From a virus: DNA of 64,000 bases. The notes under the pieces are model-generated. The model was not told the DNA's origin. It made no database searches and saw only the letters and a list, made by a program, of their open reading frames with translations. How positions within the stretch are numbered: the stretch's first letter is position 1; every line of letters begins with the position of its first letter. Of this stretch, positions 1 through 19,857 are shown one piece after another. Both the position numbers and the translations under genes were made by a program. The stretch is taken from the IMG/VR virus record IMGVR_UViG_3300007504_000003, positions 62,160 to 126,159 of that record. The stretch is one strand, 5' to 3'.

Positions 1-22
1 CTGGAAAGAAGCCCTTCAGTGG

Positions 23-475: not shown

Positions 476-498
476 GTTCTCTATCTCAGTGGGGTGAT

Positions 499-1623: not shown

Positions 1624-1646
1624 TTCCTCTATGTGGGGAGGCTAGC

Positions 1647-3146
1647 ATGGAAACCCTCGCCCACGCTGAAGCCTCTGACGGCTCGCTCCCTATCATGGAG
1701 CCCCTCCACAATGTGCGGGAGGTGGCTAAGCAACTCATCCTGTTGGAAGACCACCTCTTTCATCCTGAGCGGCACTGCGAGGATTGCATCACCAAGCATC
1801 TCCTGACCGCTGAGGCGTTCGCAGAGGAGGCCCGTTCTCTCGACGTGGCGGGAGAGTTTTCCGAGCTGCTGAACCCTCTCCCAGGGGTCTTGAGGCGGCT
1901 GTTCCGAATGTTTCAGGAGGAGAAGCCGGTGCAGGAAATCGCTCAAGCAGCTCGCAAGTTGAGGAAGCGATTGATGCCGGAGACCCTCAAGGTGCGGGTG
2001 GCCTCCCGTTGGTTGTCGGCGGAGCGAGGTCGTCAGGTTTCGGACCTGCCTAGGTTTTTGATGGTGGGTAACCGCATTCTGAACAACTTGAACGCTTTGA
2101 AGCGGGCTGAGGCTGAGGGCCGCCATGACCGGTCAGTAGTCTGGGCTCTCAACACGGATTGGTCTAGCATTGTCTCAGCGGGTCGGCGGTGGTCAGAGGA
2201 GGTGATTGAGACTCGGGCTACTCCCAGGGGTAAGGCGAAGAAAATTGAGCTGGCGGTTCGGGCTTTCCAGGTCAGCCGTACTCGCGACTCAACGAAGTGG
2301 CTCAAGAAGAACCGTCGCCACATTGAGTTGCTGATTGAAGCGGAGAGGTGGCCCCTTCGCTCTGAAGCTTCCGACGATTTGGCGAGGCAGTTCCAGCAGG
2401 GTTCGTTTACCGTTCACAACACCATCCACGCTGAAGGAAACAAGCTTCAGGCTGTCCGGGATATGATCTCTGCTGCGTCGAGGGCCCTCCCCAGGACGGG
2501 GCTCGCAGGTGCTCAGAGCATGGCTTACGGCGATCTGTTGATTGTGGGTCAGATTGGCCGGGCGTCCTGGGCTGCGTGGTACACCCCGTCGAAGGACAAT
2601 ATCGCGATTCGCCCCTTCATTCGGGGGATTTCTGCGGCTGATGCTGCTCGGCATCTTGTCCATGAGATTGGACACCGGTATTGGCATAAAGTCATCGCCC
2701 GAGATCGGGATCTGGTCCGGGCGTGGCACGCTTACCACCGGAGGCTGGGGAGCCAGCCGGTAGACCCTGTGGCTTTTCCGGGGGTTGGGGAACAGCTCCC
2801 TCACCCGATCCACATGAAGATTCTTCCTCCAGGGAGAAAGCGTAGGAAGAGGGTGCTTATTCAACCCACGGTCAAGGCTCGGGGCTCTGAGTGGGTTGAG
2901 TTTGAGGAGGCTCCCGGGGTTCGCTATAGCGTGATTTCAGTTCAGCGGATTCTGGAGAACACTGGTCGGACAGGTCGTTTCCCCTCTCCGTATGCGGCCA
3001 CGGATCCGCAGGAGCATTTCTGCGAGGCGTTTTCCTTCAAGGCGTTTGGAGAACTTTCCCCTGAAGGGGTGGAAGCGTTTGACAGGATCTTTTTGGGCCG
3101 CACGGCGGCGGATCGGGTAGCCGATCGCTGGAGTGAGCAAAGCTAG
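1647..3146 (+). CDS. two-domain protein with zincin-like metallopeptidase (paralog of 499-1623)
   Basis: HEIGH and SPYAATDPQEHFCEAF; shares FQxGxFTVxN...HE[LI]GHR[FY]W with the previous ORF; RVASRWL internally and RVADRW at the C-terminus. Confidence 0.7.
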   Translation: METLAHAEASDGSLPIMEPLHNVREVAKQLILLEDHLFHPERHCEDCITKHLLTAEAFAEEARSLDVAGEFSELLNPLPGVLRRLFRMFQEEKPVQEIAQAARKLRKRLMPETLKVRVASRWLSAERGRQVSDLPRFLMVGNRILNNLNALKRAEAEGRHDRSVVWALNTDWSSIVSAGRRWSEEVIETRATPRGKAKKIELAVRAFQVSRTRDSTKWLKKNRRHIELLIEAERWPLRSEASDDLARQFQQGSFTVHNTIHAEGNKLQAVRDMISAASRALPRTGLAGAQSMAYGDLLIVGQIGRASWAAWYTPSKDNIAIRPFIRGISAADAARHLVHEIGHRYWHKVIARDRDLVRAWHAYHRRLGSQPVDPVAFPGVGEQLPHPIHMKILPPGRKRRKRVLIQPTVKARGSEWVEFEEAPGVRYSVISVQRILENTGRTGRFPSPYAATDPQEHFCEAFSFKAFGELSPEGVEAFDRIFLGRTAADRVADRWSEQS

Positions 3147-3150
3147 CTGG

Positions 3151-3162
3151 TATCCCTTCTAT
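3151..3162 (+). promoter_or_regulatory. putative late promoter motif
   Basis: TAT-ccctt-CTAT, one of about 15 copies listed under findings. Confidence 0.55.
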
Positions 3163-3197
3163 GGACTCCGGGGGTCGAGTCCTCTCGGAGTTGTAGG

Positions 3198-3860
3198 ATG
3201 CCCAAGGTCAAAGACCCGCTTGTCCGTCAGGCGGCGGATCGTCTTCGGGAAAGCACAAAGAAGGTGATCCGGGCTTTCGTGGAGCAAAAGCCTGGAGATA
3301 GTCGTGCTCTGAGGTCAGATGGACGGTCGTTGTGGAAGCGATCTTTTGGGGAGAGCAAGTTCGCAGTCTGGAGAGCGGGTCGAATCCTCATCCTGAACGA
3401 CGAGTCCTCTAAATTTGACGACCGGGTGATCCGGTACATCATCCGGCTTGCAGGAAAGCCAACCGTAGCTTTCGAGTACGACCGCGGGGGTGCCCACCCC
3501 AATATGAAGCTGACGTTTGAGATAGTTTGGGATGACGTAATCGGCCGAGAGGAGTACAAGGCTCGTCTCGGTGCCGTCATGACCGATGGGGGTGAGCGAG
3601 GGCTCGTGGGTTGGGTGGACTACTCCAAATATCAGGGGGAGTACACGATCGACCACGTTCATGTGGTGCCTGAGTATCGCCGTAGCGGGGTCGCCACTGC
3701 CTTGTATAAGGAGCTGTTCCGTCGGGAAGGGATCACTGTCCGGGACCTGGGCCCGAGCGCGAGGACCGACCTGGGGCAGAAGTTTCGGGAGAATGCCCGG
3801 CTCGCAGCAGCACGCCGGGTCGCTGCCCGTTACCTAGGGGGCAGTCGTGAGTCGGGATAA
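3198..3860 (+). CDS. GNAT-family acetyltransferase domain protein
   Basis: IDHVHVVPEYRRSGVATALY acetyl-CoA-binding motif A; C-terminal RVAARYL tag. Confidence 0.8.
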   Translation: MPKVKDPLVRQAADRLRESTKKVIRAFVEQKPGDSRALRSDGRSLWKRSFGESKFAVWRAGRILILNDESSKFDDRVIRYIIRLAGKPTVAFEYDRGGAHPNMKLTFEIVWDDVIGREEYKARLGAVMTDGGERGLVGWVDYSKYQGEYTIDHVHVVPEYRRSGVATALYKELFRREGITVRDLGPSARTDLGQKFRENARLAAARRVAARYLGGSRESG

Positions 3861-6558
3861 AGCGGCCATTCCTTCCGTTGAGAAGGTGGTGCGTTGTTAT
3901 CGTGAGACTCAGGCGAAGACGTTCAAGATTGAGGTGGGTGACCCGATCTGGTACGGGAAGTACAAGAATAAGAAGGGGATCGTCAAGGGCTTCAAGGGGA
4001 ACGACAAGGGAGATACGATCGTTGTGATCGAGCCTGACCCGAAGGGGCGGAAGCAGAACAAGGAGCTGAAGCTCTTCAAGATTCGGCCTCGGAAGGCCCA
4101 TGTCTCCCCTGAGGTTTACGTTGAGGGGGACCCCGAGGATTACCTCCGGTTCTTCCTCCGTGATGGGAGGATGGGAGAGAATTTGGCCCGGGTCTGGATT
4201 GTCCAGATGGATCCGGAGGGCTACTGGTACCTGGATAGCGCGAAGGCGTATATCCGGGGTCAGGGCTTCGGGGTTGAAGCCTACATGGCCGCGATCAAGT
4301 ATGCGACGGAGCATGGGGCCGGGCTCGTCTCGGACGATGAGGCGTCAGCCGCCGCGAAGCGGGCTCGGCAGGATCTCCGGAAGCGAGGGGTTCAGTTTAC
4401 TCCGGGCTACGTTTTCAAGACGCACCGGTCCTCCCATATGTTCGGGACCGCTCTTCCGGTGGACGCCTGGGATGTTCGGTCGGCGGTTCTGATGAAGTCT
4501 CGGCGTGGTCCTGCGTACCCGATCCGCCAAGCTGGCTCCGCCCCGGCTTGGGGTGCCGACAGTGTGGACGCTTTCCAGTACCTCATTCGGGGGGAGTACG
4601 ACGAGGGGTTGGAGTGGGTCGAGAAGTGGGGTCTGAAGTCCTCTCAGTGGGAGGAAATCGAGGGTGGGGATGGACCCCAGGTGGCTTTGGTGAATGACGC
4701 CTTCAACGACCTGGATGACTTCATCAGTCGTCACAACGACAGGCTCCACTACCGTCACAAGGACCAGGAAGCTCGGGATTGGGCTCCGCTTGGGCGACAT
4801 TTCAAGGAAGCAGGTTCGGGTCTACCTGTGGGCTGGACTCTTCGCCACAAGTGGTATGGCCGGACGCTCATGGTGGAAATCTGGGATGACCAGAAGGATG
4901 AGCAGGTTGTCCTGATGGCGACCCGAGAGTCTGTTTCTTCCATGTCGTCAGGATGCCAGGAGGATATCCGTGCTCTCGCGGCTCAGACAGGAGCCTCGGA
5001 GGCTGACGTGCTCGTTGTACGGTCGGCCCATGCCGGGGACCACCAGGGTCGGGGGTTTGGCCGGATGGTGTATGAGCGGGCTCTGGGAGAGGCTGCGGCA
5101 GCTAATTTGATCCTGGTCCCTGATGACTGCGAGGAAGCCCGGCGGACGAGCCCCTCAGCGGCTCGGGTCTGGGATTCTCTTCGTCGCAGGTATCCGAATG
5201 ACGGGGACGCTTTCTGGGGCCGGAAGGCCAGTGAGGACGTGATGGGTCGCACAGCGTCGTATGGGGAGCAGTTGTTTATGTTGCGGCCTGGGCAGGCGTG
5301 GTCACCCAGGTTGATGAACAACGTCACCGTGTCCACCTCCCGGTCGGATATGAACAAGCCCCGCGGCGGGTTCTGGACGTCCACGTATGCGGGGGGTCGG
5401 TCGGACTGGCTGGACTGGTGTGATCGAGAGGGCTTCCGTGGCGGCAACCAGGGGGTTCTATTTGTCCCTGGGGGCAGCGTCTTCCATATCCGCGATCTGA
5501 AGAGCTATCTCCAGCTCGCTGCGGCTCATGGTCGGGTTCATCGCGACGCCATGTTCGGGGACACGGAGAACCTGATCGATTGGAATTCTGTCGCTCTCTA
5601 CTACGACGGGGTTCACTTCACTCGGGAAGCCCTACGGGACCGTGCCTTATCCGAGTACCTCTATGGGATAGATGCGGAGTCAACGATCTGGTTCAACCCT
5701 CGGGTTCTCCAGTACAAGGGGCTCGTAGATATCCAGTCGCGGTGTCGGGTGAGAGCCGCCCGGGTTGCTCAGCGGTGGCTGGAGGGGGCTCGTCCAATTC
5801 CCTTGAACCCGGCGATGGTGGATAAGGTCGTTGCTCGGGTGGTGCGGAAGATCATTTCGGGGCTCTCCGTGTTCCGGCGAGATCGAGACGATTCTCTCTA
5901 TTACGTCCGGGGCTTTGACCCGAGGAAGTGGGGCGGTGAGGTCGCGGTCTACGAGACGACCGATGTTCGGGGTCAGCGGATTAATGTCCCTGTCCGATTG
6001 AAGACAGAGCAAGAGCTATCGAATCACGTTCGGCGGTACATCGTCGGTGGAGCGGTCAGCGCCCGGTATTCCCACGGGGAAAAGTTTGGTCGTAAGTGGC
6101 AGATGGTGATCAAGCTGAATTCAGCGAGGACTCCGAATGAGATTATGGGGGACTTGAATCGGGTTACCCAGGAGGTCCGCTCCGTGGTCATCCACGAGGC
6201 GACTCATTTGCGAGACCTCCTCCGTCTTCAGTCCCCGGAAGATCGGGAGACGAGTCAGCGTGACCCCGACGCCTATTACAACCTCCCCCATGAAGTTCGG
6301 GCGTTCATGCAGCAGGTCGTCGCGGAGGTGCGGGAGGGTTTGGAGGACGCCGCCAAGTCAGGGGCTCGCTGGTACTGGCGAGCCCGGAAGATCGACAAGA
6401 GGGTCTCCAGCGGCTTTGTTATGCGGGCCTTGGAGCAGGCTCCGACATGGAACCGGGTGAGGCCGTTCATGACTGAGGAAAACCGCCGGCTGATCCTCAA
6501 GGCGGTCGCGACGTCTCTGACGGATTGGGATCCTTTCTCCATCGGGGTCCAGGTATGA
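3847..6558 (+). CDS. multidomain polyprotein: KOW/SH3-like, two GNAT-like, KPxGGxWTS domain, HExxH zincin
   Basis: IRGQGFGVEAY and HQGRGFGRMVYE GNAT motifs; KPRGGFWTS...YDGVHF...DAES; HEATH; RKAH, RKAS/RTAS and RVAQRWL fall between the domains. Confidence 0.65.
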   Translation: MSRDKAAIPSVEKVVRCYRETQAKTFKIEVGDPIWYGKYKNKKGIVKGFKGNDKGDTIVVIEPDPKGRKQNKELKLFKIRPRKAHVSPEVYVEGDPEDYLRFFLRDGRMGENLARVWIVQMDPEGYWYLDSAKAYIRGQGFGVEAYMAAIKYATEHGAGLVSDDEASAAAKRARQDLRKRGVQFTPGYVFKTHRSSHMFGTALPVDAWDVRSAVLMKSRRGPAYPIRQAGSAPAWGADSVDAFQYLIRGEYDEGLEWVEKWGLKSSQWEEIEGGDGPQVALVNDAFNDLDDFISRHNDRLHYRHKDQEARDWAPLGRHFKEAGSGLPVGWTLRHKWYGRTLMVEIWDDQKDEQVVLMATRESVSSMSSGCQEDIRALAAQTGASEADVLVVRSAHAGDHQGRGFGRMVYERALGEAAAANLILVPDDCEEARRTSPSAARVWDSLRRRYPNDGDAFWGRKASEDVMGRTASYGEQLFMLRPGQAWSPRLMNNVTVSTSRSDMNKPRGGFWTSTYAGGRSDWLDWCDREGFRGGNQGVLFVPGGSVFHIRDLKSYLQLAAAHGRVHRDAMFGDTENLIDWNSVALYYDGVHFTREALRDRALSEYLYGIDAESTIWFNPRVLQYKGLVDIQSRCRVRAARVAQRWLEGARPIPLNPAMVDKVVARVVRKIISGLSVFRRDRDDSLYYVRGFDPRKWGGEVAVYETTDVRGQRINVPVRLKTEQELSNHVRRYIVGGAVSARYSHGEKFGRKWQMVIKLNSARTPNEIMGDLNRVTQEVRSVVIHEATHLRDLLRLQSPEDRETSQRDPDAYYNLPHEVRAFMQQVVAEVREGLEDAAKSGARWYWRARKIDKRVSSGFVMRALEQAPTWNRVRPFMTEENRRLILKAVATSLTDWDPFSIGVQV

Positions 6559-7505
6559 GCAGTATCACCGCTGGTACCTGGGGCTACGAGCCCTGGGCGG
6601 GCGACGCTCAGGAGGACAACCTGAGCGCGGTCCTGAAGACCTTGAAGAAGGGGCCGGCATACAAGAAGCTGCGGGATCTCCGGCCAAAGGCGAAGGATCT
6701 GAAGGACGAGTCCCCGGTTCGCCAGATCCTCCTCCCCTGGGATTGGGTGGGTGAGGTGTACCTCGTCTCAGACGCCCTCCAGGGTGTCCCTGAGAGCCTT
6801 GTGAAGCACGCCCTGGAGTTCGTAGAGGGGATCGAGGAACACCCCGCCTACGAGGAATTCCTGGCTTCTTGGAAGGAGCCTGAGGAGTTCCCAGCTATGC
6901 GTGAGCGGGTGGAGGCGGACCTCCGTCAGGCGTTGGATTTCAGCCGTGATGGGAGGGTCAGGCTGACTATCCCTCCTATGGGTCGGCTGGCGAAATACCG
7001 GCAACCACCGCTAGGCCCCCGCCAGGATCTTGTGGACAAGATTCGTTACCGAGTGCGGTCCAACAGTGATGGGATTGTCATCGCTCTCTATTCTGGGAGG
7101 CGTTCAGCGGGAGCGATGGTCGCGCACTGGAAGAGGTTCCCCGGGGACCTTTGCGTCTCGGATATCGGGATGCTCTCGATCACGGTGACTCCCACGCCCC
7201 AGCGGATCTTGCAGGTGTATACGTCAGGCTTGGAAGAGGGGTTCCGAGGGCTGGGATATGGTCGGGCGATGTATCAAGCGTTGATGGCGGAGGGCTGGAA
7301 GCAGGAGGGCCGCCCGTTTTTCCTGACGCCGATGTGGTGTAGCTATGGATCAGGCACGTCGGCTATGGCGATGCGAGTCTGGGATTCGCTGGCTCGACAG
7401 TATCCTTCCAGCGGCAAGGTGATTGCGGTGACGGGTCCCGTGAAGCCGGGTGTCCGGACTTCTGCGGGCGTCGTAGCGAATCGCTGGTTGGGGCTTCATG
7501 AGTGA
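6555..7505 (+). CDS. GNAT-like acetyltransferase domain protein
   Basis: GFRGLGYGRAMY and RVWDSLARQYP (matches RVWDSLRRRYP of the previous ORF); ATG overlaps upstream stop (ATGA); C-terminal RTSAGVVANRWL. Confidence 0.7.
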   Translation: MSSITAGTWGYEPWAGDAQEDNLSAVLKTLKKGPAYKKLRDLRPKAKDLKDESPVRQILLPWDWVGEVYLVSDALQGVPESLVKHALEFVEGIEEHPAYEEFLASWKEPEEFPAMRERVEADLRQALDFSRDGRVRLTIPPMGRLAKYRQPPLGPRQDLVDKIRYRVRSNSDGIVIALYSGRRSAGAMVAHWKRFPGDLCVSDIGMLSITVTPTPQRILQVYTSGLEEGFRGLGYGRAMYQALMAEGWKQEGRPFFLTPMWCSYGSGTSAMAMRVWDSLARQYPSSGKVIAVTGPVKPGVRTSAGVVANRWLGLHE

Positions 7506-10500
7506 GACCTGTCGGTCTGCGGGTGGCAGCAAGGTGCTCTTCTACATAGGGCATCGGCCTGCTCGACCTGTCCCGAAGCGGACCTCCTGGGTAGACCGGG
7601 GACAAGAGGGGCCTGATTGGGTCCGACCCTGGTTGGATTCCCCGGTTCAGGCTGGCGTCTTTCTTACGACCAACCCGTTTAATGTAGCGACAGAGCACGG
7701 CATCATGGGCCACGTCTATGCCTATCAGGTCCCTCGGTGGGTCCTGAAGGAAGCCGGTGGTCTCCAGCGGTATGACCACGCGACCGAGGTGCTGATTCCG
7801 GAGCCCTTGTGGGAGCACGTCAAGTTTCTGGGGAAGTCTCTGGACAAGGGGGCTTTCAGGCAGCGGGTTTTAGAAGGCCAGAATGAGCGAGCCTTCGCGC
7901 CTCATAATCTGGCTGTAGGGCTCGGTGAGGCAAGAGAGGTTTACATGAGGCCGAAACCCCAGAGGGTTGCTTTCCGGTACCTTCAGTCTTCTGATATCGC
8001 GGAGCGGGTCGCCGCTCGTTACCAGAAGAAGAAGGAAGTTCCGAAGGCGAAGGGCGAGGGGACCACCACGGTGTACGAGTACAGCGAGGGTCAGGTTCAG
8101 CACCGGAATCGGGAGAAGGCGAAGCGGATTGAGAAGCTCCGCACGGGAATCGGGAAGCTGCGAGCCAAGGTCAAGGGAGACCTCACCTCGTCAGACGATA
8201 AGACCCGTTTGACAGCCCTGGCTGTGGCTTTGATGGACGAGACCTATGAGCGGGTTGGGAATGACCAATCGGCTAAGGAGGGCCATTTCGGGGTCACTGG
8301 CTGGCAAGCCAAGCATGTGAAGTTCAGCGGGGGGAAGGCGACCATTTCCTACGTTGGAAAATCCGGTGTCCGTCAGAAGAAAGAGGTCACCACTGCGAAG
8401 GTGGTCTCGGCACTCAAGCGGGCGATGAAAGGCAAGTCCGGGACCACGCAGGTGCTCTGCGAGGGGGATGACTGTCGGGTTCTGGCTCAGGACGTCAACG
8501 GCTACTTGAAGCCTTTCAACATCACGGCGAAGGATATCCGTGGGCTCCACGCCAATGAGGAAGTCAAGACCCGACTGAAGGAAGTCCGCAGGAAGGGCGG
8601 CAAGCTCCCGACCGATCCGAAGAAGAAGGCTGAGAAGCTCAAGGCGGAGTTCAAGGAAGCCTTGGAAGCCGCCGCTTCGGCTGTCGGTCACCAGCCCGGC
8701 ACCCTCAAGAGTCAGTACCTCGTACCTGGAGTAGAGCAGACCTTCCTGAAGGATGGCTCTGTTTCCGTGAAGCACGCCTCCAGCCGGGTCGCGATTATCA
8801 ATCTCAACCACGCCACGGATGGGGAGAAGGGAGACCACTCCCTACGTGGAGTGGCTGGGTTGATCTCCAGTCTCACCTACTATGAGCGGGCTCTGGTTCA
8901 GGATATGCTGGTTCACGATCAGCCAATCCGGAAGGGGAAGGAGGGGTATTCTCTTCGCGGCCACCCCGTCATGTCTGATGCTGTAGGTGAGCTGGTCGCC
9001 GCGGGCTATCTGGAGGGGGAGGGGGAGGTCCGGCTCTCGGGGTTGTTCCTGGCGAAAAAGAAGCTCTACAAGAAAGAAGCTTCCCTGGACCGGGCGGCGG
9101 AGGCTTTTCTGTCTTCTGCCCCGGAGAAGTGGGGTCGGGCAGATCTCCTGGCTTTCACTCGGGTCGATCCCTGGTTCCAGGCGATGACTCTCCCCTCACG
9201 AGTCGCAGCGGCGGGTGAGTTGTTTGGTCGGGTTCTCCGAGCGGGTGTCATGGATCGCTCACATCCCCAGGCGGTAGCCTGGGTGGAGTCGTTTTTTCAG
9301 CGGCATCCAGCTCTGCGTCGCTACCAGGGGATTCCGGTTCTCCACGTCTCCTCGCCGGGGTCGGGTTCGCATCCCGAGGCTCGTCAGACCTATCGGGGGA
9401 TTGAGCTGTATCCGAAGTTCTGGGGTCACTCCACGGAAATCCAGGACTTCATCTTCGCGCATGAGATCGGTCACGCGGTTCGATCGGAGTGGGGCTTGGC
9501 TTTTGGCGTGGCTGCTGCTGCTCTTGGGATTGACCCGTGGGATACACCGAATCTCCCCTTCGGTCAGTTCAATCAGGACGAGGCCTTCGCGGATTCCTTC
9601 GCCAGTTATTTCACGGATGGGGATGTAGGTCGGAGGTATCCGGCGTGGAGTCGGCTCGTAGAGGAGGGGCTCCGGATTCGGGTAGGGAAGAAATCCCCCG
9701 CGGACAAAGAGGATGCCGAGGTAGAGCGGCTGGTGAGGCCCTCGCCTAAGAAGAAGCCGCCGCGGAAGGACAAGAGACGAGAGCAAATTCGTGAGGAGGA
9801 TCGGGACACGGACGGAGACCGGGACACCAAGCGAGACAAGGATATGAGCCTCAACTACAAGGATAGCGTCAGCCGGGTGGCGGCTCGTTATCTGGAGGCC
9901 CTCCGCGTCAAGACGGTTCGGGTCTTGAATACGGATACCGGGAAGATGGAGAACATCTCTCCGGAGCGGTTCCAGAGGAACCCGGGGAAGTACAAGCTGT
10001 GGCGGGACATGTCCCCCGAGGAAAAGGACAAGAATAGGCTCCGTAAGAAGCCTCCGGTTGAGGAGACTCCCCAGGAGGAAGAGGCGGAAGAAGCTCCTCA
10101 GGAAGAGGAGGGAGGAGAGGAGGGGGAAGAGGAGGAAGAAGAGGCCCCCCAGGAAGAAGAGGCCCCCCAGGAGGAAGAGGTTTCCCAGGAGGAAGAGGTT
10201 TCCCAGGAAGAAGAATCTACGAGTGACCCGGACACGGAGGACTACGAGGATGTGTCTTCCCTGCTGGAGGAGATCCCGGAGTCTCTGACTCCGGAGCAGA
10301 AGGCAATTCGCCGGAGCGAGTTGGTTGAGGCTGCCTTGTCCGTGATGACGAACAAGTTGGCGGCTGCTGAGAAGGAAGTGGCTGAACTGGAGGAGTCCCT
10401 GGATTCCCTTTTGGCTGACCCTGCCACGACCAGTAAGCAAAAGGCGTCTGCGAAGCAGAAGCTCCAGGCAGCGGTGAAGGGCCGCAACGAGATGAAGAAG

Positions 10501-11535
10501 GAGGTGTCCCGCCTCCAGAGCCGTCGGGACACCCTGGAGTCCGAGCGGCAGCAGAGAGAAGACGCTGCGGCTGCAAAGAAGATGAAGTCTGAGCGAGCCA
10601 AGGCTCTACAGGACTTGGTCGGTCAGGTCGGCGGCATGGTGGATCGTCTGGATGATCCTGGCGGGGATTTCACTGACCCGCTGGAGGTCGGTCAGATGTT
10701 CTACAAGGAAATCTCTGGTCTGACCCCAGCAGAATCTCAGAGCCTCGTCGATCAGATCCAGGACCGAGTCCGGGAGCTTCCGGGAGAGGAGTCCGTTCTC
10801 CGGGCAGGGTATGTGGCTGCCCTCGACGCGGTGGAGGTTGCGTCTATCGTTCGTGGTCAAGAAGTCGCCATTGAGGGGCGTTCCCCGCTGATGCAGATGG
10901 CTCACCGTCTTCTGAAGACGGTCGCGAAAATCCCTGGAAAGGAGGTTGACCTTCTTGGAGTGGGTCGCGGGGTCGGGTCAGGCTCCTGGGTTGGGATTTC
11001 GGACCAGATTAAGAACCTCTCCCATGAGGATCTGGTCCGGGTGGTAGGGGCTGACTCGGACCAACACCCCTTTTCCGGCATGGCGAAGTTCTTGCTGGAC
11101 TCTGAGGCTCCTGATGAGCGGAAGGCGATGGCTCGCCAATGGATGCAAGATGCCGCCTTGGACGCTTTTGGTTTGCTCTCCCCGGTGGCAGAGGAGATCG
11201 TTCAGGACAGTCGGGATCTGGGTTCCGGAGCGGGTGAGGAATTGGTGATAGAGGTGCAGGAGGCATACGCCGGCACCTGGGCTGCCGTGGAGGGTGGGGG
11301 CGACAGCGACGACCAAGAAGAGGCCGATCTTTACTCTTTTGAGGACCCTCTTCAGGAAACCCTGGGGAGCCCGGAGAAGCAGGAGGTCTCGCGCTTGGAT
11401 AGCCTTCAACGTGTTCTGGACATGCTCCAGAAGCGGTTTGAGGGGGTTCGTACACGGACTATGAAAGTAATCGAGGCCCTCCTCATTAAGGGGGATCCGG
11501 ACGTGGGTCCGGTCTCGTTCAACCGAGCAACCTAA
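7498..11535 (+). CDS. 1345-aa polyprotein: ART-like domain, DNA topoisomerase IB core, zincin, acidic low-complexity and helical regions
   Basis: TopIB motifs YERVGN, YVGKSG, AKDIRG, VGHQPGTLKSQYL; HEIGH with DEAFADSF; GVFLTTNP...EVLI; RVAFRYL, RVAARYQ and RVAARYL at domain borders. Confidence 0.75.
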   Translation: MSETCRSAGGSKVLFYIGHRPARPVPKRTSWVDRGQEGPDWVRPWLDSPVQAGVFLTTNPFNVATEHGIMGHVYAYQVPRWVLKEAGGLQRYDHATEVLIPEPLWEHVKFLGKSLDKGAFRQRVLEGQNERAFAPHNLAVGLGEAREVYMRPKPQRVAFRYLQSSDIAERVAARYQKKKEVPKAKGEGTTTVYEYSEGQVQHRNREKAKRIEKLRTGIGKLRAKVKGDLTSSDDKTRLTALAVALMDETYERVGNDQSAKEGHFGVTGWQAKHVKFSGGKATISYVGKSGVRQKKEVTTAKVVSALKRAMKGKSGTTQVLCEGDDCRVLAQDVNGYLKPFNITAKDIRGLHANEEVKTRLKEVRRKGGKLPTDPKKKAEKLKAEFKEALEAAASAVGHQPGTLKSQYLVPGVEQTFLKDGSVSVKHASSRVAIINLNHATDGEKGDHSLRGVAGLISSLTYYERALVQDMLVHDQPIRKGKEGYSLRGHPVMSDAVGELVAAGYLEGEGEVRLSGLFLAKKKLYKKEASLDRAAEAFLSSAPEKWGRADLLAFTRVDPWFQAMTLPSRVAAAGELFGRVLRAGVMDRSHPQAVAWVESFFQRHPALRRYQGIPVLHVSSPGSGSHPEARQTYRGIELYPKFWGHSTEIQDFIFAHEIGHAVRSEWGLAFGVAAAALGIDPWDTPNLPFGQFNQDEAFADSFASYFTDGDVGRRYPAWSRLVEEGLRIRVGKKSPADKEDAEVERLVRPSPKKKPPRKDKRREQIREEDRDTDGDRDTKRDKDMSLNYKDSVSRVAARYLEALRVKTVRVLNTDTGKMENISPERFQRNPGKYKLWRDMSPEEKDKNRLRKKPPVEETPQEEEAEEAPQEEEGGEEGEEEEEEAPQEEEAPQEEEVSQEEEVSQEEESTSDPDTEDYEDVSSLLEEIPESLTPEQKAIRRSELVEAALSVMTNKLAAAEKEVAELEESLDSLLADPATTSKQKASAKQKLQAAVKGRNEMKKEVSRLQSRRDTLESERQQREDAAAAKKMKSERAKALQDLVGQVGGMVDRLDDPGGDFTDPLEVGQMFYKEISGLTPAESQSLVDQIQDRVRELPGEESVLRAGYVAALDAVEVASIVRGQEVAIEGRSPLMQMAHRLLKTVAKIPGKEVDLLGVGRGVGSGSWVGISDQIKNLSHEDLVRVVGADSDQHPFSGMAKFLLDSEAPDERKAMARQWMQDAALDAFGLLSPVAEEIVQDSRDLGSGAGEELVIEVQEAYAGTWAAVEGGGDSDDQEEADLYSFEDPLQETLGSPEKQEVSRLDSLQRVLDMLQKRFEGVRTRTMKVIEALLIKGDPDVGPVSFNRAT
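10066..10212 (+). repeat. Glu-rich tandem EE[AV][PS]QEE repeats inside the 1345-aa ORF
   Basis: repeated gaggaagaggc/tttcccaggag units visible in the DNA. Confidence 0.8.
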
Positions 11536-11613
11536 TCTTCTAAAGGGGCTCGGGAGTTAGGTCTGCGGGTACTCAGACCGCCCTCCGTAAATAACTGCGG
11601 GTAACTTTGGCGG

Positions 11614-11625
11614 TATTCTCCTTAT
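11614..11625 (+). promoter_or_regulatory. putative late promoter of the head operon
   Basis: TAT-tctcc-TTAT; GGTAACTTT also present at 11600. Confidence 0.6.
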
Positions 11626-11694
11626 AGCCCTCTCTATAGGTCAGACAGCAGTAAACCCCTGCTTGCGTATGAGCATGACCTGTGGAGATAGCAA

Positions 11695-12204
11695 ATGGCG
11701 AAGCTGACCCTTGCGGGTGCTAAGCGAGTCACGGCTGATATGGAGCGGATCGCTGAGGTTGTTCAGCGTGAGTTTGCTGTTCTCGGGATTCCCGAGAAGG
11801 TGGCGATGGATTACGCCTATCGGACAGACCTCCTTTCGGATCGGATTGAGAAGGTCGCAGCGGACAACGCAGCGTCTATCGCTCCGGATGAGATCGGGGA
11901 GATCAAGCCCGGTCCTGAGGAGATGGAGTCGGACGAGTCCTATATGAAGGGGCAGTTCACTCAGGTGGACAACGAGGAGCTGAGCCGCAAGCAAGAGTCG
12001 GGTCGGCTTGCTCGCCTCAAGGAGCTACAGGCGTCCCTGGCGACACTCCAGGGGGAGATTCAAGTTCTCCAGGCCGGTTCAGAGGATTCTGAGAAGAAGG
12101 AAGCTGCGGCGGAGCCTGTTGAGGAGAAGGAAGCTTCCACTCCTCCCACGGAGAAGGAGGCTTCCGAAGCCCCTTTTAGCCACGGCTACAACCTCTTCGC
12201 CTGA
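11695..12204 (+). CDS. putative head assembly/internal head protein
   Basis: acidic, KVAA/KEAA/KEAS sites, directly upstream of the protease operon. Confidence 0.55.
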   Translation: MAKLTLAGAKRVTADMERIAEVVQREFAVLGIPEKVAMDYAYRTDLLSDRIEKVAADNAASIAPDEIGEIKPGPEEMESDESYMKGQFTQVDNEELSRKQESGRLARLKELQASLATLQGEIQVLQAGSEDSEKKEAAAEPVEEKEASTPPTEKEASEAPFSHGYNLFA

Positions 12205-12213
12205 GTTCTACGG

Positions 12214-12729
12214 ATGGTCCGTTCCGCCCTCGATTACCAGTCTCTTGCTCGCGATTTCAGCGAGGGAGACATGGTGTCCGTGGTCCGGACCCCAAACTCT
12301 CGGGGTCGGGTGACCGAGGTCTACCAGGGGATCGGGATGGTTGACGTGAAGTTCCCCACGGGGACTATCCGTTACCCGGTGGAAGACCTCATGCGGCTGG
12401 ACCAGAGCAACGCGGAGGTGGCTCCTCCGAAGGACCGGGAAGCGTCCCGTGCCCCCAACCCGGAGAGGGTTGCTAAGGCGTTTGCTCGTAAGGCGATCTA
12501 TTGGGCTTCCCGAGATCGCCAGTACCGGGCAACCAGGGGCGAGCAAGACTCTCGCAGCTACGCCTGTCCTCGGTGCGGTTCGTCCCTGAAAGCCATGATC
12601 TACAAGCGGGAAGAGGGCCGGAGCCAGCGGCTCTATGGCTGCTCTGGGCACGAGTGCTCGTTCTTGATCAAGCCCACAGCCATCCATGGGTGTCACCTCA
12701 ATGGTTGTGATGAGGAGGCTGGGCTCTGA
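12214..12729 (+). CDS. hypothetical head-region protein (SH3/KOW-like N-terminus, C-terminal Cys zinc ribbon)
   Basis: EGDMVSVV...GRVTEVY; CPRCG...CSGHEC; REAS...ERVAKAF. Confidence 0.55.
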   Translation: MVRSALDYQSLARDFSEGDMVSVVRTPNSRGRVTEVYQGIGMVDVKFPTGTIRYPVEDLMRLDQSNAEVAPPKDREASRAPNPERVAKAFARKAIYWASRDRQYRATRGEQDSRSYACPRCGSSLKAMIYKREEGRSQRLYGCSGHECSFLIKPTAIHGCHLNGCDEEAGL

Positions 12730-15700
12730 TGGCTTTCCGTAAGTTCGCCAACGCCAGGGTCACACACCCGCGAATCTCTTCCCGGGGCTGGGGTCGGGTG
12801 CGGACTGCGGCTCGGAAGAAGGGCGGCGCGTCCCCGATTGCCTCTCATGATCTCGCCTCTCGGGCGTCAGAGATTCTCGGGGAGCGGTTCGACCCTGATC
12901 GGTATCTCCTCTCCCACGCTACGATCGTGGCTTCGGTGGATGTGGAGGAGGTCCAGGGCGCCAAGCTGGGCAAGGTGCGGGTGGGCAGCAAGACCATCGA
13001 TCGTCGATGGGGTGCTTACTACATCAATCCGGCGTGCTCTGATCTGGTCAACAACAACGGGGATGCGTGGTCGAGGAAGGTGCTCCTGGCGAGCTACCCC
13101 ACGTTCATTGGTTCCCACAACTTCTGCTTCGCGGCTGGTACCGGCATTCTCCTGTCGGATGGCACTTACAAGGCTATCGAGGAAGTCCAGGTGGGGGACC
13201 GTGTGGTAACCCATACGGGTGCTTGTCAGGCAGTAACTCATAAGTTCGAGCGGGATTACGAAGGGGACATTCACGCTATCGGATTCGACCGATTTAAGGA
13301 TCCGGTGTTGGTGACGGGCAACCATCCCTTCCGAGGGATTCAAGTCTCTTCGGCACCCGTCAAACCACGGTCAGGTTCCAAGGCGTCCAGCACTACCCGT
13401 TATTACAAAGATCAGGTGGCTAAGGCTCTACGGGGCGACAAGCACTCTCTCAAGGATTTCAAGGCTGAATCCACTTGGGTTCGTGCTGATCAGATGCGGG
13501 TAGGGGACCGGGTTCTGGGTCCCGTCCGAGAGGCTGGCACTCATTCGGATCCGGGCCTAGCTGAGTTGCTAGGGTACTACTTGGCTGAGGGATGCCCTTT
13601 GTCTCCGAGTTCGGATCAGGGCTTCGTGCTCGCCTTCGGGCACCACGAAGTTGATCTGGCTCGCCGTGCTGAGTCTCTGGCTTACGCAGTGCTGAACCCA
13701 AGCTCCGTGACGGTGGCTACGGTTCAGACCGGCATTCAAGTGCGGGTATACTCCGCGGAGGCATCCCGTCGAATGGTGTCCCTGGGCGGGCACCGGGCTG
13801 CGGATAAGCGGCTGTCGGAAGAGGTTTTCTCCTGGGATGAGGAGTCCTTGCTCCGTCTCCTGGCCGCTTGGTTGGCTGGGGACGGGAACCTCCATAAGGC
13901 CACCCTTCGTCTGCGTGGAACCACCACCTCTGAAGCTCTCGCTCAGCAAATGCAGCGGGTGGCTGAGCTGGCTGGTGTCAAGTCTTTTGTTATGTTTGAG
14001 CCCCAGAAGATTGGGGAAGTCCAGAGTCGTGTTGTGATGACCATCGGGGGCGAAGATAGGTCCTTTGATGTAGTTCCTCGTCACCACGTCTGGACGCTGG
14101 TTGTCTCCAAGGGCTCTACTTCGCAAGTGGCTTCGGCAACCCCAAGGTGGGGCACCCCGTTGTTTGATGCGACGGCGAAGCGGAAGCGGTCGGAGTTGGC
14201 TTGGTGGGGTGGCTGCCGCACTCATCGAGTGGCTTCTAATGAGACTCTTCCTTTCCGTGGAAAGGTCTACAATATTGAGGTCGAGGGCGATCACAGCTAC
14301 GTTATCGATTACGGAATCGCAGTACATAACTGCGAGCATGTCCAGGTAGAGGAGCTGTCCAAGGGCAGGATTATCGACGCCGCCGCGAGGGATATCGGTC
14401 GGTCGGTCTACGTGGATATTCTGGTCGCGACTGACCGGAAGCACACCCAGCTTGTCACGGATATTGAATCCGGGAAGATGGGCACGCTCTCGATGGGCTG
14501 CACAACCCAGACGACTCAGTGTACGAAGTGCGGCAACGTCGCCGTGGATGACACGGATACCTGCGACTGCATCCGGTACCACAAACTCGATACCTTCTAC
14601 GACAGTCAAGGTCAGCGTCGAGTCATCGCGGAGCTGTGTTTCCCTCCTGGCATCCGAGTCTCAATCGGAGATGGGAGTCGGGTAGCCATTGAGGATCTCC
14701 AAGTTGGGGATGTGGTTCTCTCCCACACGGGGCACCGACGTGAGGTCGTTGAGATTTTCGAGCGGGACTTTGATGGTGATCTGGTAGCCTTGGACTTGGT
14801 GGGTCTCCCGCAAACGCTACGGAGCACCCCCAACCACCCCTTCTGGGTTATCAGCCAGAATGATGTGTGTGCCTGTGGTTGCGGCATCAAGCTTAAGAGC
14901 GTCCGCAAGACCTTTGCACGGGGGGAATATACTCGTAAGTATGCCCCAGGGCACAACCCTACGAATGTCGTGTCCTTGGATGCGCCCTCTTTTGACTTTG
15001 TCGAAGCCGGGAACGTGAGGGTTGGGGACATGGTGGCGATGCCGGCCCCGCAGGGTGTGGTGGTTCCGGAGGATGTGGATGAGGACAGGGCACGGCTCCT
15101 GGGATGGTTCTTGGCTGAGGGCTGCTACATCAAGAAGGATGGGCAGCGGGTGGGCATTCAACTCACCCTTAATGCAGAGGATGAGGTGGGTGTTGCGGAA
15201 GCCCTGGCTTCCCTCCTGAGCAAGTGCTTTACTCCCGAGTTCAACCTCCAGAAGGCCACGAAGGTCCGGCTGTTGGAAGCTCTGGCGATCCCCGCAACGA
15301 CTCGACAGGTTTCTCGTAGATTGGGGTTGCGAGAGAAGACAATTCAACTGGCTTTGTCGGGGCTCAGGTCAGAGGGACTCGTTTCGAGTCGGAGGCTTCG
15401 TGCTTCGGAGAAGACGCAATTCGGGGCCTCCGGGACCAACGCTCTCGTGTGGGAGCGGCTGAGTGGTGCTCCGGCTGATTGGTTTAATCTAGCCCGGGTT
15501 CATTGCTTTGACCGGGTTGCGGAGCCCGGCAAGAAGTTGGTCGTCTGCTATACGAACCGAAGTGCTGCCGACTGGTTCTATAAGCACGCCGGGGAGTATT
15601 CCGGTTCCAAGAGGCTCTCGGAGGATGCAATTCTCTGGCCCAAAACCCTGCAAGCATCGATGCTTCGATCTTACCTCTGGGGGGACGGCACCGTTGACAC

Positions 15701-16790
15701 CCGAGGTCGCCATTCTGTGTCGTCCGTGTCGGAGACCCTGATCAGCCAGATGCAAGTGGTGGCTGCTCGGTGTGGTTTCTGGACCCGACGGCAAGTGATT
15801 TTCGAGGGTCAATGTGTAGAGCTTCAGCAAGTCGTCAACGGGACAGCGGTGCCTGTTGGGTCTGACGGATTCCGTGCTCGTCATGAACTGCACATCCAGC
15901 CTTCTGATGAGGCCACGGCGTTTTTCGGATTGACTGAGGTTGGTAGTCGAGGTTTGACCCCGGCATGGCGTACCCATGAGGGGTACATGCTGTACCGGGT
16001 CCGGGATGTGTGGACGGAGTCCTATAAGGGGAAGGTTCACAACATCGCAGTGGACACCGATCATTCGTATCTGGCGGAAGGGATTGCCGTACATAATTGC
16101 GGGCATCATTCCCTGGATGACACTGGCGGAGTGGTGTTCATTGAGGCTTCCTGGGTGGGGAATCCTGCGTTCAAGGGAGCCGTTCTCCGGAACGTTCTTT
16201 CTCCTACTCAGGCGATTCCCCACAACAAGACTCTCCAAGATGTGCTCTCCTCTCCTCCCCCGACCTGGACTGAGGGGGGGATGCCGCGAGCGGCGGCTCT
16301 AGCCTTCGACTTCGGTGATCCGGAGGATGGCGAGGAAGAGCAGGATTCTCCGAAGTCCCCTGCGCGTCCCTTGGACAAGACCAAGGAGAAGCTCAAGGAG
16401 AAGCTCATCAAGGATGTTCGTGAGGACATTGAGAAGGATTTGGAGGACGAGAAGCCTCCATCCTCGGATGAAGTCCACACCAACGACAATCTTCACAAGC
16501 AAGCTCAGGAGCGGGTAGAGAGGGTTCTCCTCCGTACCGCGAGTTCCGAGACCGATCTCATCAACAAGGTCGCTCTTCTGGATGCTGAGTTTGGCTGTGT
16601 TCAGCCTCGGGACACCTACCTGACTGCCCTCCGGGTTGGAGGGCAGGCATACCGCGACAACCCGGCTCGCTTCCTCTTGGCGTGTCAGGATCACACGGGA
16701 CGCCGCTTTGGTATCCCAGAAGTCAAGGTGTTCCGACGCCTTGGAAGTCTCCTCTCCCTGCTGGAGAGCCCCCCCAACAAGACCCCCTAG
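12729..16790 (+). CDS. prohead (maturation) protease precursor containing two inteins; about 464 aa after splicing
   Basis: spliced extein reads SHNF|CEH...GTLSMG...AEL|CGH...FIEASWVGNPAFKGA (His/Ser pattern of HK97-like proteases); lies before scaffold and capsid genes. Confidence 0.75.
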   Translation: MAFRKFANARVTHPRISSRGWGRVRTAARKKGGASPIASHDLASRASEILGERFDPDRYLLSHATIVASVDVEEVQGAKLGKVRVGSKTIDRRWGAYYINPACSDLVNNNGDAWSRKVLLASYPTFIGSHNFCFAAGTGILLSDGTYKAIEEVQVGDRVVTHTGACQAVTHKFERDYEGDIHAIGFDRFKDPVLVTGNHPFRGIQVSSAPVKPRSGSKASSTTRYYKDQVAKALRGDKHSLKDFKAESTWVRADQMRVGDRVLGPVREAGTHSDPGLAELLGYYLAEGCPLSPSSDQGFVLAFGHHEVDLARRAESLAYAVLNPSSVTVATVQTGIQVRVYSAEASRRMVSLGGHRAADKRLSEEVFSWDEESLLRLLAAWLAGDGNLHKATLRLRGTTTSEALAQQMQRVAELAGVKSFVMFEPQKIGEVQSRVVMTIGGEDRSFDVVPRHHVWTLVVSKGSTSQVASATPRWGTPLFDATAKRKRSELAWWGGCRTHRVASNETLPFRGKVYNIEVEGDHSYVIDYGIAVHNCEHVQVEELSKGRIIDAAARDIGRSVYVDILVATDRKHTQLVTDIESGKMGTLSMGCTTQTTQCTKCGNVAVDDTDTCDCIRYHKLDTFYDSQGQRRVIAELCFPPGIRVSIGDGSRVAIEDLQVGDVVLSHTGHRREVVEIFERDFDGDLVALDLVGLPQTLRSTPNHPFWVISQNDVCACGCGIKLKSVRKTFARGEYTRKYAPGHNPTNVVSLDAPSFDFVEAGNVRVGDMVAMPAPQGVVVPEDVDEDRARLLGWFLAEGCYIKKDGQRVGIQLTLNAEDEVGVAEALASLLSKCFTPEFNLQKATKVRLLEALAIPATTRQVSRRLGLREKTIQLALSGLRSEGLVSSRRLRASEKTQFGASGTNALVWERLSGAPADWFNLARVHCFDRVAEPGKKLVVCYTNRSAADWFYKHAGEYSGSKRLSEDAILWPKTLQASMLRSYLWGDGTVDTRGRHSVSSVSETLISQMQVVAARCGFWTRRQVIFEGQCVELQQVVNGTAVPVGSDGFRARHELHIQPSDEATAFFGLTEVGSRGLTPAWRTHEGYMLYRVRDVWTESYKGKVHNIAVDTDHSYLAEGIAVHNCGHHSLDDTGGVVFIEASWVGNPAFKGAVLRNVLSPTQAIPHNKTLQDVLSSPPPTWTEGGMPRAAALAFDFGDPEDGEEEQDSPKSPARPLDKTKEKLKEKLIKDVREDIEKDLEDEKPPSSDEVHTNDNLHKQAQERVERVLLRTASSETDLINKVALLDAEFGCVQPRDTYLTALRVGGQAYRDNPARFLLACQDHTGRRFGIPEVKVFRRLGSLLSLLESPPNKTP
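13125..14330 (+). mobile_element. intein 1 (402 aa) with LAGLIDADG homing endonuclease
   Basis: starts CFAAGTGILLSDG, block B VTGNHPF, LLGYYLAEG and LAAWLAGDG, ends VYNIEVEGDHSY...VHN followed by Cys+1. Confidence 0.93.
14637..16097 (+). mobile_element. intein 2 (487 aa) with LAGLIDADG homing endonuclease and HTH insertion
   Basis: starts CFPPGIRV, STPNHPF, LLGWFLAEG and LRSYLWGDG, ends VHNIAVDTDHSY...VHN followed by Cys+1. Confidence 0.93.
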
Positions 16791-16800
16791 GAGTCTACTC

Positions 16801-18305: not shown

Positions 18306-18968
18306 ATGGCTTTGCTTGGACAGGCGAGCGGTGCGTGGACTGAGTCGAGCAGCGCCCTGAGGATCCTCTACAAGGGGATCAACAACTCGGTGGGCATCCT
18401 GACCGATGATAGCTTCACGCAGACCAACCCGCCGATCGTCACCGCAACCTCTACCATCGCTTCCAACGTGGACACCAGCCTCCTGGGCGTCCTCAGCGGC
18501 TCGGTGGCCTTCACCCGCCCCGATGAGGGCAGCAACTACATCGGCGGCAACGCCGAGGGTCTCGCGACCGCCAGCCACGAGCTGATCGTCCGTCCCCTGG
18601 GGCTGTTCATCAACAACGCGGCGGGCAACTCTTTCGAGAACCAGCCGGCGTCCGCCAGCGGCAAGGGGCCCTACGTCTCCGGCCAGGGCACCTACGCCAG
18701 CCAGCTCTTTGAGACCCAGCTCCTCAGCGGCACCGGCCTCACCGGATCCGCTGGCGACGATATCAGCTACCTGACGGGCCTCTCCCTGGTGGCGAGCCGC
18801 AACGGCTACCTCCAGCCGTCCTACGATCTCACCAACACTGAGACGATGGACGTGGCTTCTGTGGCTGCCGAGGTCGAGCACGGCCAGTCGGCGTCCACCG
18901 TCATCGGAATCCTCAAGATGCCCTCGGATGCCACGCAGGCCGAGATCGTCTTCGACCAGCGCATCTGA
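18306..18968 (+). CDS. putative capsid decoration/cement protein
   Basis: beta-rich, strongly biased codon usage, immediately upstream of the major capsid gene. Confidence 0.6.
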   Translation: MALLGQASGAWTESSSALRILYKGINNSVGILTDDSFTQTNPPIVTATSTIASNVDTSLLGVLSGSVAFTRPDEGSNYIGGNAEGLATASHELIVRPLGLFINNAAGNSFENQPASASGKGPYVSGQGTYASQLFETQLLSGTGLTGSAGDDISYLTGLSLVASRNGYLQPSYDLTNTETMDVASVAAEVEHGQSASTVIGILKMPSDATQAEIVFDQRI

Positions 18969-18981
18969 GGAGGGAGACACA

Positions 18982-19857
18982 ATGGCAAAGGTAAGCAACG
19001 CTGTCAAGCAGCGGATCATCAGCGAGTACATCAAGACCCCCCGCGGTCGTGCTCGCCTCGCAGCCTCCATGACGCAGCCCCTCCGGATGCGTCGGGACTA
19101 CTCGGCGGTCGGTCGCAAGACCTTCCTCGTCGAGGATCTCCCCGATGGAGCCCTCCCGATCTACGACAAGGATCCGGAAGTCACCGCCTACGTGGTGGGC
19201 GAGGAAGGTGAGAACATCCTCGCCATCCAGAAGCCGCGTCGGGTGCTCTTCCCCCTGTTCGAGATCGCGTCGAACCCCGAGATCCCGCTCACGCAGATCA
19301 AGGAACGCCGGTTCGACATGATCGACCGGGCCCAGGTGCTCGCGAAGTCGCAGGTCCAGGCCGCCGAGGACGAGCGTGTCTTCGCCGTGCTGGACGCCAT
19401 CGCGACCAACGGCTTCGACTCCGTGGCGGGCGGCACCAACGCCGATATCCCCGTCATCGCGCCGCTGTCCGCCGCGGTCATCGCTGACGCGATGGGTCTC
19501 GTCGAGCGGCACGACCTCCACGCCGCTCGGATCTACATGAACCAGCGGGACTTCACGGATATCCGGAAGTTCGGCCGCGACGTGTTCGACCCCGAGAGCC
19601 AGCGGGAGCTGGTCCGCACCGGCCTCGTCGGCACCATCTACGGCTGCCAGATCGTGACCTCCCGCCTCGTCCCGGTGGGCACGGTGTACGTGTGTTGCGA
19701 TCCCGAGATGTTCGGCCGCATCCCCGTCCGCACCGAGCTGACGGTGCTCTCGGCCGACGACCCGAAGGCCCGGACCATCGGCTTCAGTATTTTCGAGAAC
19801 CTCGGTCTGGGTGCCTACAACCCCCGGGGCCTCGCTCGGATGACGATCACTCGCTGA
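18982..19857 (+). CDS. major capsid protein (HK97 fold)
   Basis: 291 aa after RBS GAGGAGGGAG; IASNPEIPLTQIKERRFDMIDRAQ...AAEDERVF, IYMNQRDF..IRK, GTIYGCQIVTSRLVP; follows protease-scaffold. Confidence 0.85.
   Translation: MAKVSNAVKQRIISEYIKTPRGRARLAASMTQPLRMRRDYSAVGRKTFLVEDLPDGALPIYDKDPEVTAYVVGEEGENILAIQKPRRVLFPLFEIASNPEIPLTQIKERRFDMIDRAQVLAKSQVQAAEDERVFAVLDAIATNGFDSVAGGTNADIPVIAPLSAAVIADAMGLVERHDLHAARIYMNQRDFTDIRKFGRDVFDPESQRELVRTGLVGTIYGCQIVTSRLVPVGTVYVCCDPEMFGRIPVRTELTVLSADDPKARTIGFSIFENLGLGAYNPRGLARMTITR

Follow-up and report, generated by a model that had tools for sequence, protein, structure and literature searches.

Introduction

A virion-carried type IB topoisomerase (TopIB) is a hallmark of poxviruses, and in vaccinia the enzyme is a component of the virion core, with a supporting role in early transcription. 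To our knowledge, no tailed phage carries TopIB in its virion. The present analysis concerns a stretch of 64,000 nucleotides (positions 62,160 to 126,159 of IMG/VR virus record IMGVR_UViG_3300007504_000003; hereafter the window), which is the second half of a 126-kb virus contig, and within it the open reading frame (ORF) P0001, in which a TopIB module is embedded among other enzyme modules and lies between phage head genes.

Loading of internal proteins into phage heads has been described in phage T4, in which a short peptide, the capsid targeting sequence (CTS), stands on unrelated internal proteins, serves in prohead loading and is then trimmed by the head protease. In other phages, genes for head-internal proteins typically lie between those for portal and protease.

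Polyvalent proteins combine disparate enzyme domains in one polypeptide. Their phage versions have genes that adjoin those for virion proteins, and packaging, processing and injection have been predicted for them (PMC5512222). Iyer et al. (2017) defined the zincin metallopeptidase of these proteins with 4dv8 and predicted that it processes them (PMC5512222). In the full text of that work, the word topoisomerase occurs only in the reference list, and TopIB is not among the domains described in the text. The cultured jumbo phages PaBG, Lu11, phiRSL1, Motura and NCTB have topoisomerase I genes with a catalytic domain of the tyrosine-recombinase superfamily (PMC7824862), which Iyer et al. (2021) treat as replication/recombination components and not as head-operon modules. 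A literature search, outside which subscription journals lay, gave no description of TopIB in head-operon polyvalent proteins; against the literature searched, P0001 is an undescribed variant of a known strategy. The reading favoured here, with a little better than even confidence, is that P0001 is a polyvalent protein of a phage-G-like huge phage, carried as head cargo, processed, and delivered along with the DNA.

The TopIB module

Judged by its sequence, the module of P0001 at aa 170-424 is a genuine TopIB, and its active site is intact. Topoisom_I (PF01028) matched aa 201-405 with 85.8 bits (cut-off 23.7, E 3.7e-24), scored 91 bits in a six-frame search and is the single significant Pfam family in P0001. 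A full TopIB catalytic set had been claimed in an earlier, sequence-only reading of the window, and its motifs lie where that reading placed them: ERVGN (aa 251-255, nt 8248-8262), GKSG (aa 287-290), AKDIR (aa 344-348) and VGHQPGTLKSQYL (aa 396-408), the last with the catalytic Tyr407, the codon of which (nt 8716-8718) begins at the position given for it. R252, K288, K345, R348, H398 and Y407 show no variation in either of two sets of relatives, of 9 and of 32. Structure-profile alignment pairs them with variola R130, K167, K220, R223, H265 and Y274 (ERVG corresponding to the R130 motif, GKSGV to K167, AKDIR to K220/R223 and VGH...Y to H265/Y274), and the His-to-Tyr spacing of 9 (H-x8-Y) is that of variola H265/Y274. 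A profile built from nine of the TopIB modules matched, among solved structures, exclusively type IB topoisomerases: 6z01 (E 1.5e-20), D. radiodurans 2f4q (2.6e-16), variola 2h7f (8.8e-16), vaccinia 1a41 (4.6e-12) and human TopIB (5.7e-11).

The module shares with poxvirus TopIB (2h7f, 3igc, 1a41) the catalytic core of R, K, K, R, H and Y and the H-x8-Y spacing, and is likewise predicted to act as a small, ATP-independent enzyme. It differs in that the similarity is found at the profile level only, and in being embedded behind a peptide tag in a 1345-aa protein of a tailed phage. Residues 1-80 of the vaccinia enzyme form the N-terminal beta-sheet domain, the second half of the DNA clamp. The variola alignment begins at residue 63, upstream of which the phage module has a tag and a KKK-rich stretch, so that, of the N-terminal domain of the poxvirus enzymes, probably no more than the last hairpin (Y-x-Y) is left in the phage module. 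With ~255 residues it is the smallest natural TopIB architecture among those examined and, apparently without most of the N-terminal domain, an attractive minimal TopIB for study.

Bacterial and archaeal TopIB (2f4q/3m4a; 6z01) give the best or equal-best sequence matches and have the same catalytic core, but in cells TopIB is a free-standing protein of two domains. The D. radiodurans enzyme has Asn at the position of the catalytic His, whereas the phage module retains His. The TopIB of the cultured jumbo phages is distant from the module.

Mosaic architecture of P0001

The frame of P0001 is unbroken from the ATG at 7498 to the stop codon at 11533-11535, and its start overlaps the end of the preceding ORF by 8 nt. 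BLAST comparison with 55 homologs divides the protein into blocks that recur independently and in varying order, with aa 1-140 found in 6 homologs, aa 170-430 in all, aa 430-530 in 10-16, aa 585-725 in 13-15 and aa 725-800 in 49, and with a weakly conserved C-terminal part. The TopIB module is one part of a mosaic multi-enzyme protein, and the earlier view of it as embedded in a larger protein beside other domains is borne out. Searches of PHROGs and NCBIfam with P0001 gave no match. The features are listed in Table 1.

Table 1. Positions of the modules, motifs and neighbouring head genes of P0001 in the window.
Feature	Position (nt)	Strand	Basis or remark
P0001, whole ORF, mosaic multi-enzyme head-module protein	7498..11535	+	1345 aa
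M1, suggested ADP-ribosyltransferase-like fold, aa 1-130	7498..7887	+	AF2 model, VIA
Tag copy 1, RVAFRYL, aa 156-162	7963..7983	+	
Tag copy 2, RVAARYQ, aa 170-176	8005..8025	+	joined to N-terminus of TopIB module
TopIB module, aa 170-424	8005..8769	+	Pfam, PDB profile matches, invariant residues
TopIB catalytic residues	R252 (8251), K288 (8359), K345 (8530), R348 (8539), H398 (8689), Y407 (8716)	+	
K-H-A-S junction closing TopIB module, candidate processing site	8770..8781	+	consensus L-x-K-x-[AG]-[SA]
M3a, aa 429-529	8782..9084	+	common to 10-16 homologs; directly after TopIB in other loci
Zincin-like metallopeptidase module, aa 585-730	9250..9687	+	model of pLDDT >90, Foldseek, VIA
Conserved linker, aa 730-792	9685..9873	+	common to 49/55 homologs; aligned in 39 loci
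Tag copy 3, RVAARYL, aa 793-799	9874..9894	+	
C-terminal backbone, aa 800-1345, acidic, probably coiled-coil	9895..11532	+	weakly conserved
Acidic QEEEAP repeats	10133..10214	+	TRF: period 18 nt, 4.6 copies, 92% matches
Probable prohead protease gene, split by two inteins	12729..16790	+	Hint, LAGLIDADG; intein-free homolog
Major capsid protein	18928..19857	+	phrog_2522, E 1.4e-52; 40% identity to phage G gp27

The zincin module is, according to its model, shaped like the catalytic domain of anthrax lethal factor. It has the motif HEIGH (aa 655-659, nt 9460-9474), in which E656 is the predicted catalytic Glu, followed by the third-ligand helix DEAFADSFA (aa 694-702, nt 9577-9603). Its best Foldseek matches were lethal factor, PPEP-1 and abylysin, and VIA gave Z 10.7 to 4pkt and 10.6 to 4dv8, with a root-mean-square deviation (rmsd) of 3.5 over 147 residues aligned to 580-776 of 4pkt/4dv8.

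The N-terminal module M1 is suggested by its AF2 model (pLDDT 66) to be ADP-ribosyltransferase (ART)-like. VIA scores stayed below Z 8 (ParT 6.7, rmsd 3.8 over 101 residues; RES/MbcT 6.0; diphtheria toxin 5.9), and every row of the top 50 was of the ART fold. Members of the ART superfamily have a catalytic triad, H-Y-E or R-S-E. In M1, R20, T57 and E97, which are conserved in 8 homologs (with Lys at position 20 in one), are candidate key residues, and M1 was found at other positions in 6 homologs. The His of the motif FYIGH was rejected as the ART catalytic residue, being Lys or Phe in relatives.

Module M3a, which follows TopIB, is modelled as helix-helix-beta-hairpin, winged-helix-like (pLDDT <50), and could be a DNA-binding partner of TopIB. 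In the C-terminal backbone, the QEEEAP repeats lie within a broader acidic tract (~10060-10227), and aa 948-1018 gave a weak coiled-coil match (PUMA_CC, Pfam); an ESM Atlas search with aa 930-1345 gave no usable match. In some relatives the backbone is an ORF of its own directly 3' of the portal gene, with the linker at its start.

The sequence-only reading had flanked TopIB with an ART-like domain, a zincin and acidic repeats. The zincin and the repeats hold; the ART-like domain is supported at the level of the fold, and the FYIGH His is not conserved.

This anatomy is that of a polyvalent protein in several respects. P0001 joins TopIB, a zincin and an ART-like fold in one polypeptide; the in-line zincin is of the lethal-factor-like kind (HExxH with a downstream Glu) and matches 4dv8; ART-like and GNAT modules stand in the same protein or array as TopIB; and the gene lies among those of TerL, portal, probable protease and major capsid protein (MCP). 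It differs in that Mu F was not found here. Of the LPD domains, a sub-threshold LPD1 match was seen, only in a neighbouring 1247-aa protein.

Tags, junctions and linker

A short tag of the form RVAxR[YW]L recurs in P0001 and its neighbours. Strict R-V-A-x-R-[YW] tags occur 7 times in the 126-kb contig, in 5 ORFs, where ~0.1 would be expected by a rough estimate from residue frequencies. In 80 related loci, 71 strict tags were found on plus-strand ORFs as against 0 in 572,000 aa of minus-strand ORFs. Over the first 30 residues of an ORF, tag density amounts to 2.5-3 times its value in the interior. As the sequence-only reading had noticed for RVAARYQ, the tag stands at the head of the TopIB module, and it does so in most of 66 distinct ORFs; in free-standing TopIB genes it comes 5-20 residues after the start. 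Conservation in the tag logo is confined to positions -3 to +8, of which -2, +1, +2, +5, +6 and +8 are taken by hydrophobic or small residues, the pattern of a predicted amphipathic helix.

Tag copies were also seen elsewhere in the contig. The ORF directly 5' of P0001 (6525-7505, +) has the tag VVANRWL five residues ahead of its stop codon, and a GNAT ORF (3198-3860, +) has RRVAARYLGG at its C-terminal end; tags are thus also C-terminal, adjoining the start of the next gene. Further copies (RVAARWL, RVASKY, RVASRWL) occur at window positions 51331-52320, 52137-53780 and 1647-3146 (+), in proteins placed 40 kb from the head block, one of which has a SWIM zinc finger.

The tag is like the CTS of T4 in being short, helix-patterned, frequent near N-termini and borne by unrelated proteins, but it has no sequence similarity to the CTS and is also internal and C-terminal. 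Neither the tag nor the linker described below (KPPRxD...SLNYK) was found described in PMC5512222, as far as that text is searchable.

The K-H-A-S junction that closes the TopIB module belongs to a logo that, in 170 homologs, has L at 78%, K at 66% and A/G at 64%, with conservation ceasing afterwards; in 7 loci a stop codon follows this junction within 8 aa. A second junction, K-E-A-S (aa 526-529, 9073-9084), closes M3a. K-x-A-[AST] is enriched 8-fold within 12 residues upstream of tags, and the gene boundaries of relatives coincide with tag, K-x-A-S junction and linker. The sequence KHASSRVA (aa 425-432), proposed earlier as the downstream boundary of TopIB, is present, and is made up of the junction and the start of M3a. 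Its SRVA was rejected as a tag: it is without the R-[YW] half, and in relatives the corresponding VAIINLNHATDG is the start of M3a, which follows TopIB in other loci.

The linker, of 65 residues, has the basic/acidic consensus ATK..EKEDEE..LVRP.PKKKPPR.DLRR...DKDLSLNYK, followed by a tag, and is the most conserved non-enzymatic element of these proteins, with P755 invariant. It lies C-terminal to TopIB in 130 of the 182 TopIB proteins and never N-terminal to it, and where the protein is split, a gene of its own directly 3' of the portal gene begins with the linker.

The tag itself is disfavoured as a protease site, its logo having no conserved flanking residue. Since the logo is that of a helix only, docking is favoured for the tag, and cutting is proposed to take place at the K-x-A-S and linker junctions. 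When the capsid protein and a tag segment of 36 residues (9835-9942) were modelled as a complex, without controls, the score was 0.00, which is uninformative on binding either way.

Head-gene neighbourhood

The genes are arranged in the order TerL, portal, LPD1/2'-5'-ligase protein, an array of large ORFs, P0001, two small ORFs, protease, scaffold-like protein and MCP. This head gene order is kept in ~60 of 82 IMG/VR loci that were retrieved by way of the TopIB module, on contigs of up to 618 kb. The second of the upstream genes encodes a protein with an intein and a portal match (phrog_16240, 6e-25), TerL also has an intein, and the 1247-aa protein that follows has a 2'-5' RNA ligase domain and an LPD1 match of 23.9 bits, below the 27-bit cut-off. 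The Hint and LAGLIDADG inteins of TerL (L003:6340-9669) and portal (L003:10260-13628) are just upstream of the window, and inteins of the same kind split the probable protease gene. The intein-free homolog of the latter (L005:13156-14763) matches phrog_18299, 'head maturation protease' (8.7e-10).

Between the protease and capsid genes, an acidic ORF (16636-18117, +; 23% D+E) with four DPDEALLQQMLAEE-type repeats is probably a scaffolding protein; it gave no family match. A small acidic ORF containing GIPEKVAMDYAYRTDLLSD (11695-12204, +) has homologs fused to the C-terminus of the TopIB protein in several relatives (L081, L009, L064, L070 and L079), and therefore belongs to the same cargo/backbone unit.

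When the comparison was anchored on the capsid gene, found in no fewer than 577 IMG/VR contigs, 30 loci extended far enough upstream. In the 10 kb ahead of MCP, TopIB was found in 15/30 and the linker in 25/30; the protease is present in 30/30. The TopIB module can also be autonomous: in ~10 loci it is a free gene of ~350 aa between the TerL and portal genes. Such free genes, at ~9950-11030 in each of L031, L048, L050, L056, L057, L060, L062, L071 and L072, share a C-terminal extension of ~90 aa (PPL.F..R.IRQLVDH...GG.WE), which the embedded modules do not have.

Distribution among huge phages

The contig is 28% complete according to CheckV, from which a full genome of roughly 450 kb follows for the 126 kb present, and it is one piece of the genome of a phage-G-like huge phage. 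The family of TopIB modules comprises at least 667 clusters at E <= 1e-30, from uncultured huge phages, and is found in at least 126 IMG/VR contigs. The best 150 clusters all lie below 1e-107, in proteins of 318-3381 aa in which the module may stand at any position. Its fusion partners include PolyA_pol/CCA, PAP2, RNA ligase, cREC, 2'-5' ligase, GNAT and AAT domains. Among cultured phages, PaBG was the sole match (27% identity, E 8e-3), with one uncultured-phage record in addition. The earlier statement that TopIB is uncommon in tailed phages is therefore right for cultured phages and wrong for uncultured huge phages.

Portal, protease-like and MCP homologs are present in phage G, which has a genome of 498 kb. 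In that genome (L091), gp15 (11033-12409; 458 aa, with a CCPVC motif) occupies the post-portal slot that is held here by the polyvalent array.

Proposed role and alternative explanations

Polyvalent anatomy and the slot between portal and protease together favour the head-cargo reading. The sequence-only reading had proposed a virion-delivered topoisomerase for newly injected DNA, a proposal that is supported in part. In this scheme, P0001 would be made late, along with the portal, protease, scaffold-like and capsid proteins, and would enter the procapsid by way of its backbone, the short amphipathic RVAxR[YW]L helices or both. There it may be cut at the conserved K-x-A-S and linker junctions by its own metallopeptidase, the prohead protease or both, and the pieces would exit the head together with the DNA. 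The freed TopIB would remove supercoils in an ATP-independent reaction, with Tyr407 forming a 3'-phosphotyrosyl intermediate. The incoming genome of ~450 kb would be the likeliest substrate, and, as with the enzyme of poxvirus cores, early transcription would benefit. In this scheme the DNA target is inferred, as are packaging, cleavage and injection.

Several points weigh against this scheme. An HExxH motif of any kind occurs in only 66 of the 182 TopIB-bearing proteins, so that self-processing cannot be general. Pfam searches for S77, S78 and Mu F domains across the contig found none, leaving the phrog_18299 match as the sole ground for the protease call. The tag logo appears closer to a docking helix than to a scissile site, and the TopIB module appears to be without most of the poxvirus N-terminal domain. 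In the cultured relative phage G, TopIB and the linker were not found, so that it lends the scheme no support.

Other roles can be assigned to the same protein. P0001 might be packaged cargo in which TopIB is an anti-host weapon, relaxing the negatively supercoiled host chromosome and disturbing transcription or replication beside other host-directed modules. Fusion to ART and GNAT domains, which are classed as host-directed conflict domains (Iyer et al., PMC5512222), would agree with this, as would fusion to RNA-repair and nucleotide enzymes (PolyA_pol, RNA ligase, 2'-5' ligase) and an apparently truncated N-terminal domain that could mean low sequence specificity. The sequence, however, does not discriminate between host and phage DNA as the substrate, and a few injected molecules would need to outcompete host gyrase; the nearest precedent, the poxvirus virion enzyme, acts on the viral genome. 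A role as anti-host weapon is accordingly considered unlikely. An improbable role of much the same standing is in head filling, where TopIB would relieve torsion at or in the procapsid while the terminase packs the ~450-kb genome, the large protein being an assembly factor that need not be injected. The free TopIB genes directly between TerL and portal would suit such a role, as would the restriction of the family to very large genomes (on contigs of up to 618 kb); TopIB is read in the same direction as the packaging genes, and promoter-like sites in window 1-20000 are not above shuffled sequence. Against it, it is not obvious what part in packaging the modules fused to TopIB (ART-like, RNA-repair enzymes, GNAT) would have, and phage G, of 498 kb, has no TopIB. 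About half of the MCP-anchored relatives are also without TopIB within 10 kb upstream, so that it is perhaps dispensable, although copies farther upstream, for instance between TerL and portal, would escape this count.

Alternatively, P0001 might be an ordinary cytoplasmic multi-domain enzyme, neither cut nor packaged, that lies in a late operon by chance, with RVAxRY as a linker or interaction motif unrelated to the capsid. This gains from the case for packaging and cleavage being indirect and from the lack of a Mu F-type head-targeting domain in the Pfam search of the contig. It is nevertheless thought quite unlikely, because the position between portal and protease is kept in ~60 loci despite heavy shuffling of modules, the linker-headed backbone is a gene of its own directly 3' of portal in split forms, tags are enriched at ORF termini, and the in-line zincin is of the polyvalent-protein type. 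The last alternative, that the module is a tyrosine recombinase or telomere resolvase and not a topoisomerase, draws on the catalytic fold and chemistry that these enzymes have in common with TopIB. Its probability is close to negligible: in the profile search that the sequence-only reading had called for, Pfam gave Topoisom_I above its cut-off and no integrase family at E <= 1, all solved-structure matches are TopIB, and the positions of K288 and K345 and the H-x8-Y spacing are TopIB-like.

If P0001 is head cargo, topoisomerase delivery along with the DNA would be common to hundreds of lineages of huge phages. This would bear on the unpacking and first transcription of genomes of 400-600 kb and on the roles of the large genes without annotation that separate portal from capsid in huge phages. 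A wider proposal, put forward tentatively and with some doubt, is that phage-G-like huge phages have a general cargo-loading system, in which RVAxR[YW]L helices and K-x-A-S/linker junctions would address a shuffled set of enzymes to the capsid and release them into it, TopIB being the most constant enzymatic cargo. Under that proposal TopIB cargo would be a convergence with poxviruses, and very large double-stranded DNA viruses of bacteria and eukaryotes would need a pre-packaged swivelase to start genome expression. The grammar of tags and junctions offers a concrete handle on cargo loading in huge phages.

Other features of the contig

Across window 1-20000, which spans the array, promoter-like and terminator-like sites do not exceed their frequency in shuffled sequence; 3' of the MCP gene lies a terminator-like hairpin. 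At window positions 44080-48738, open frames of ~1500 aa are present on both strands, and GC content there reaches 0.68 (46001-48000).

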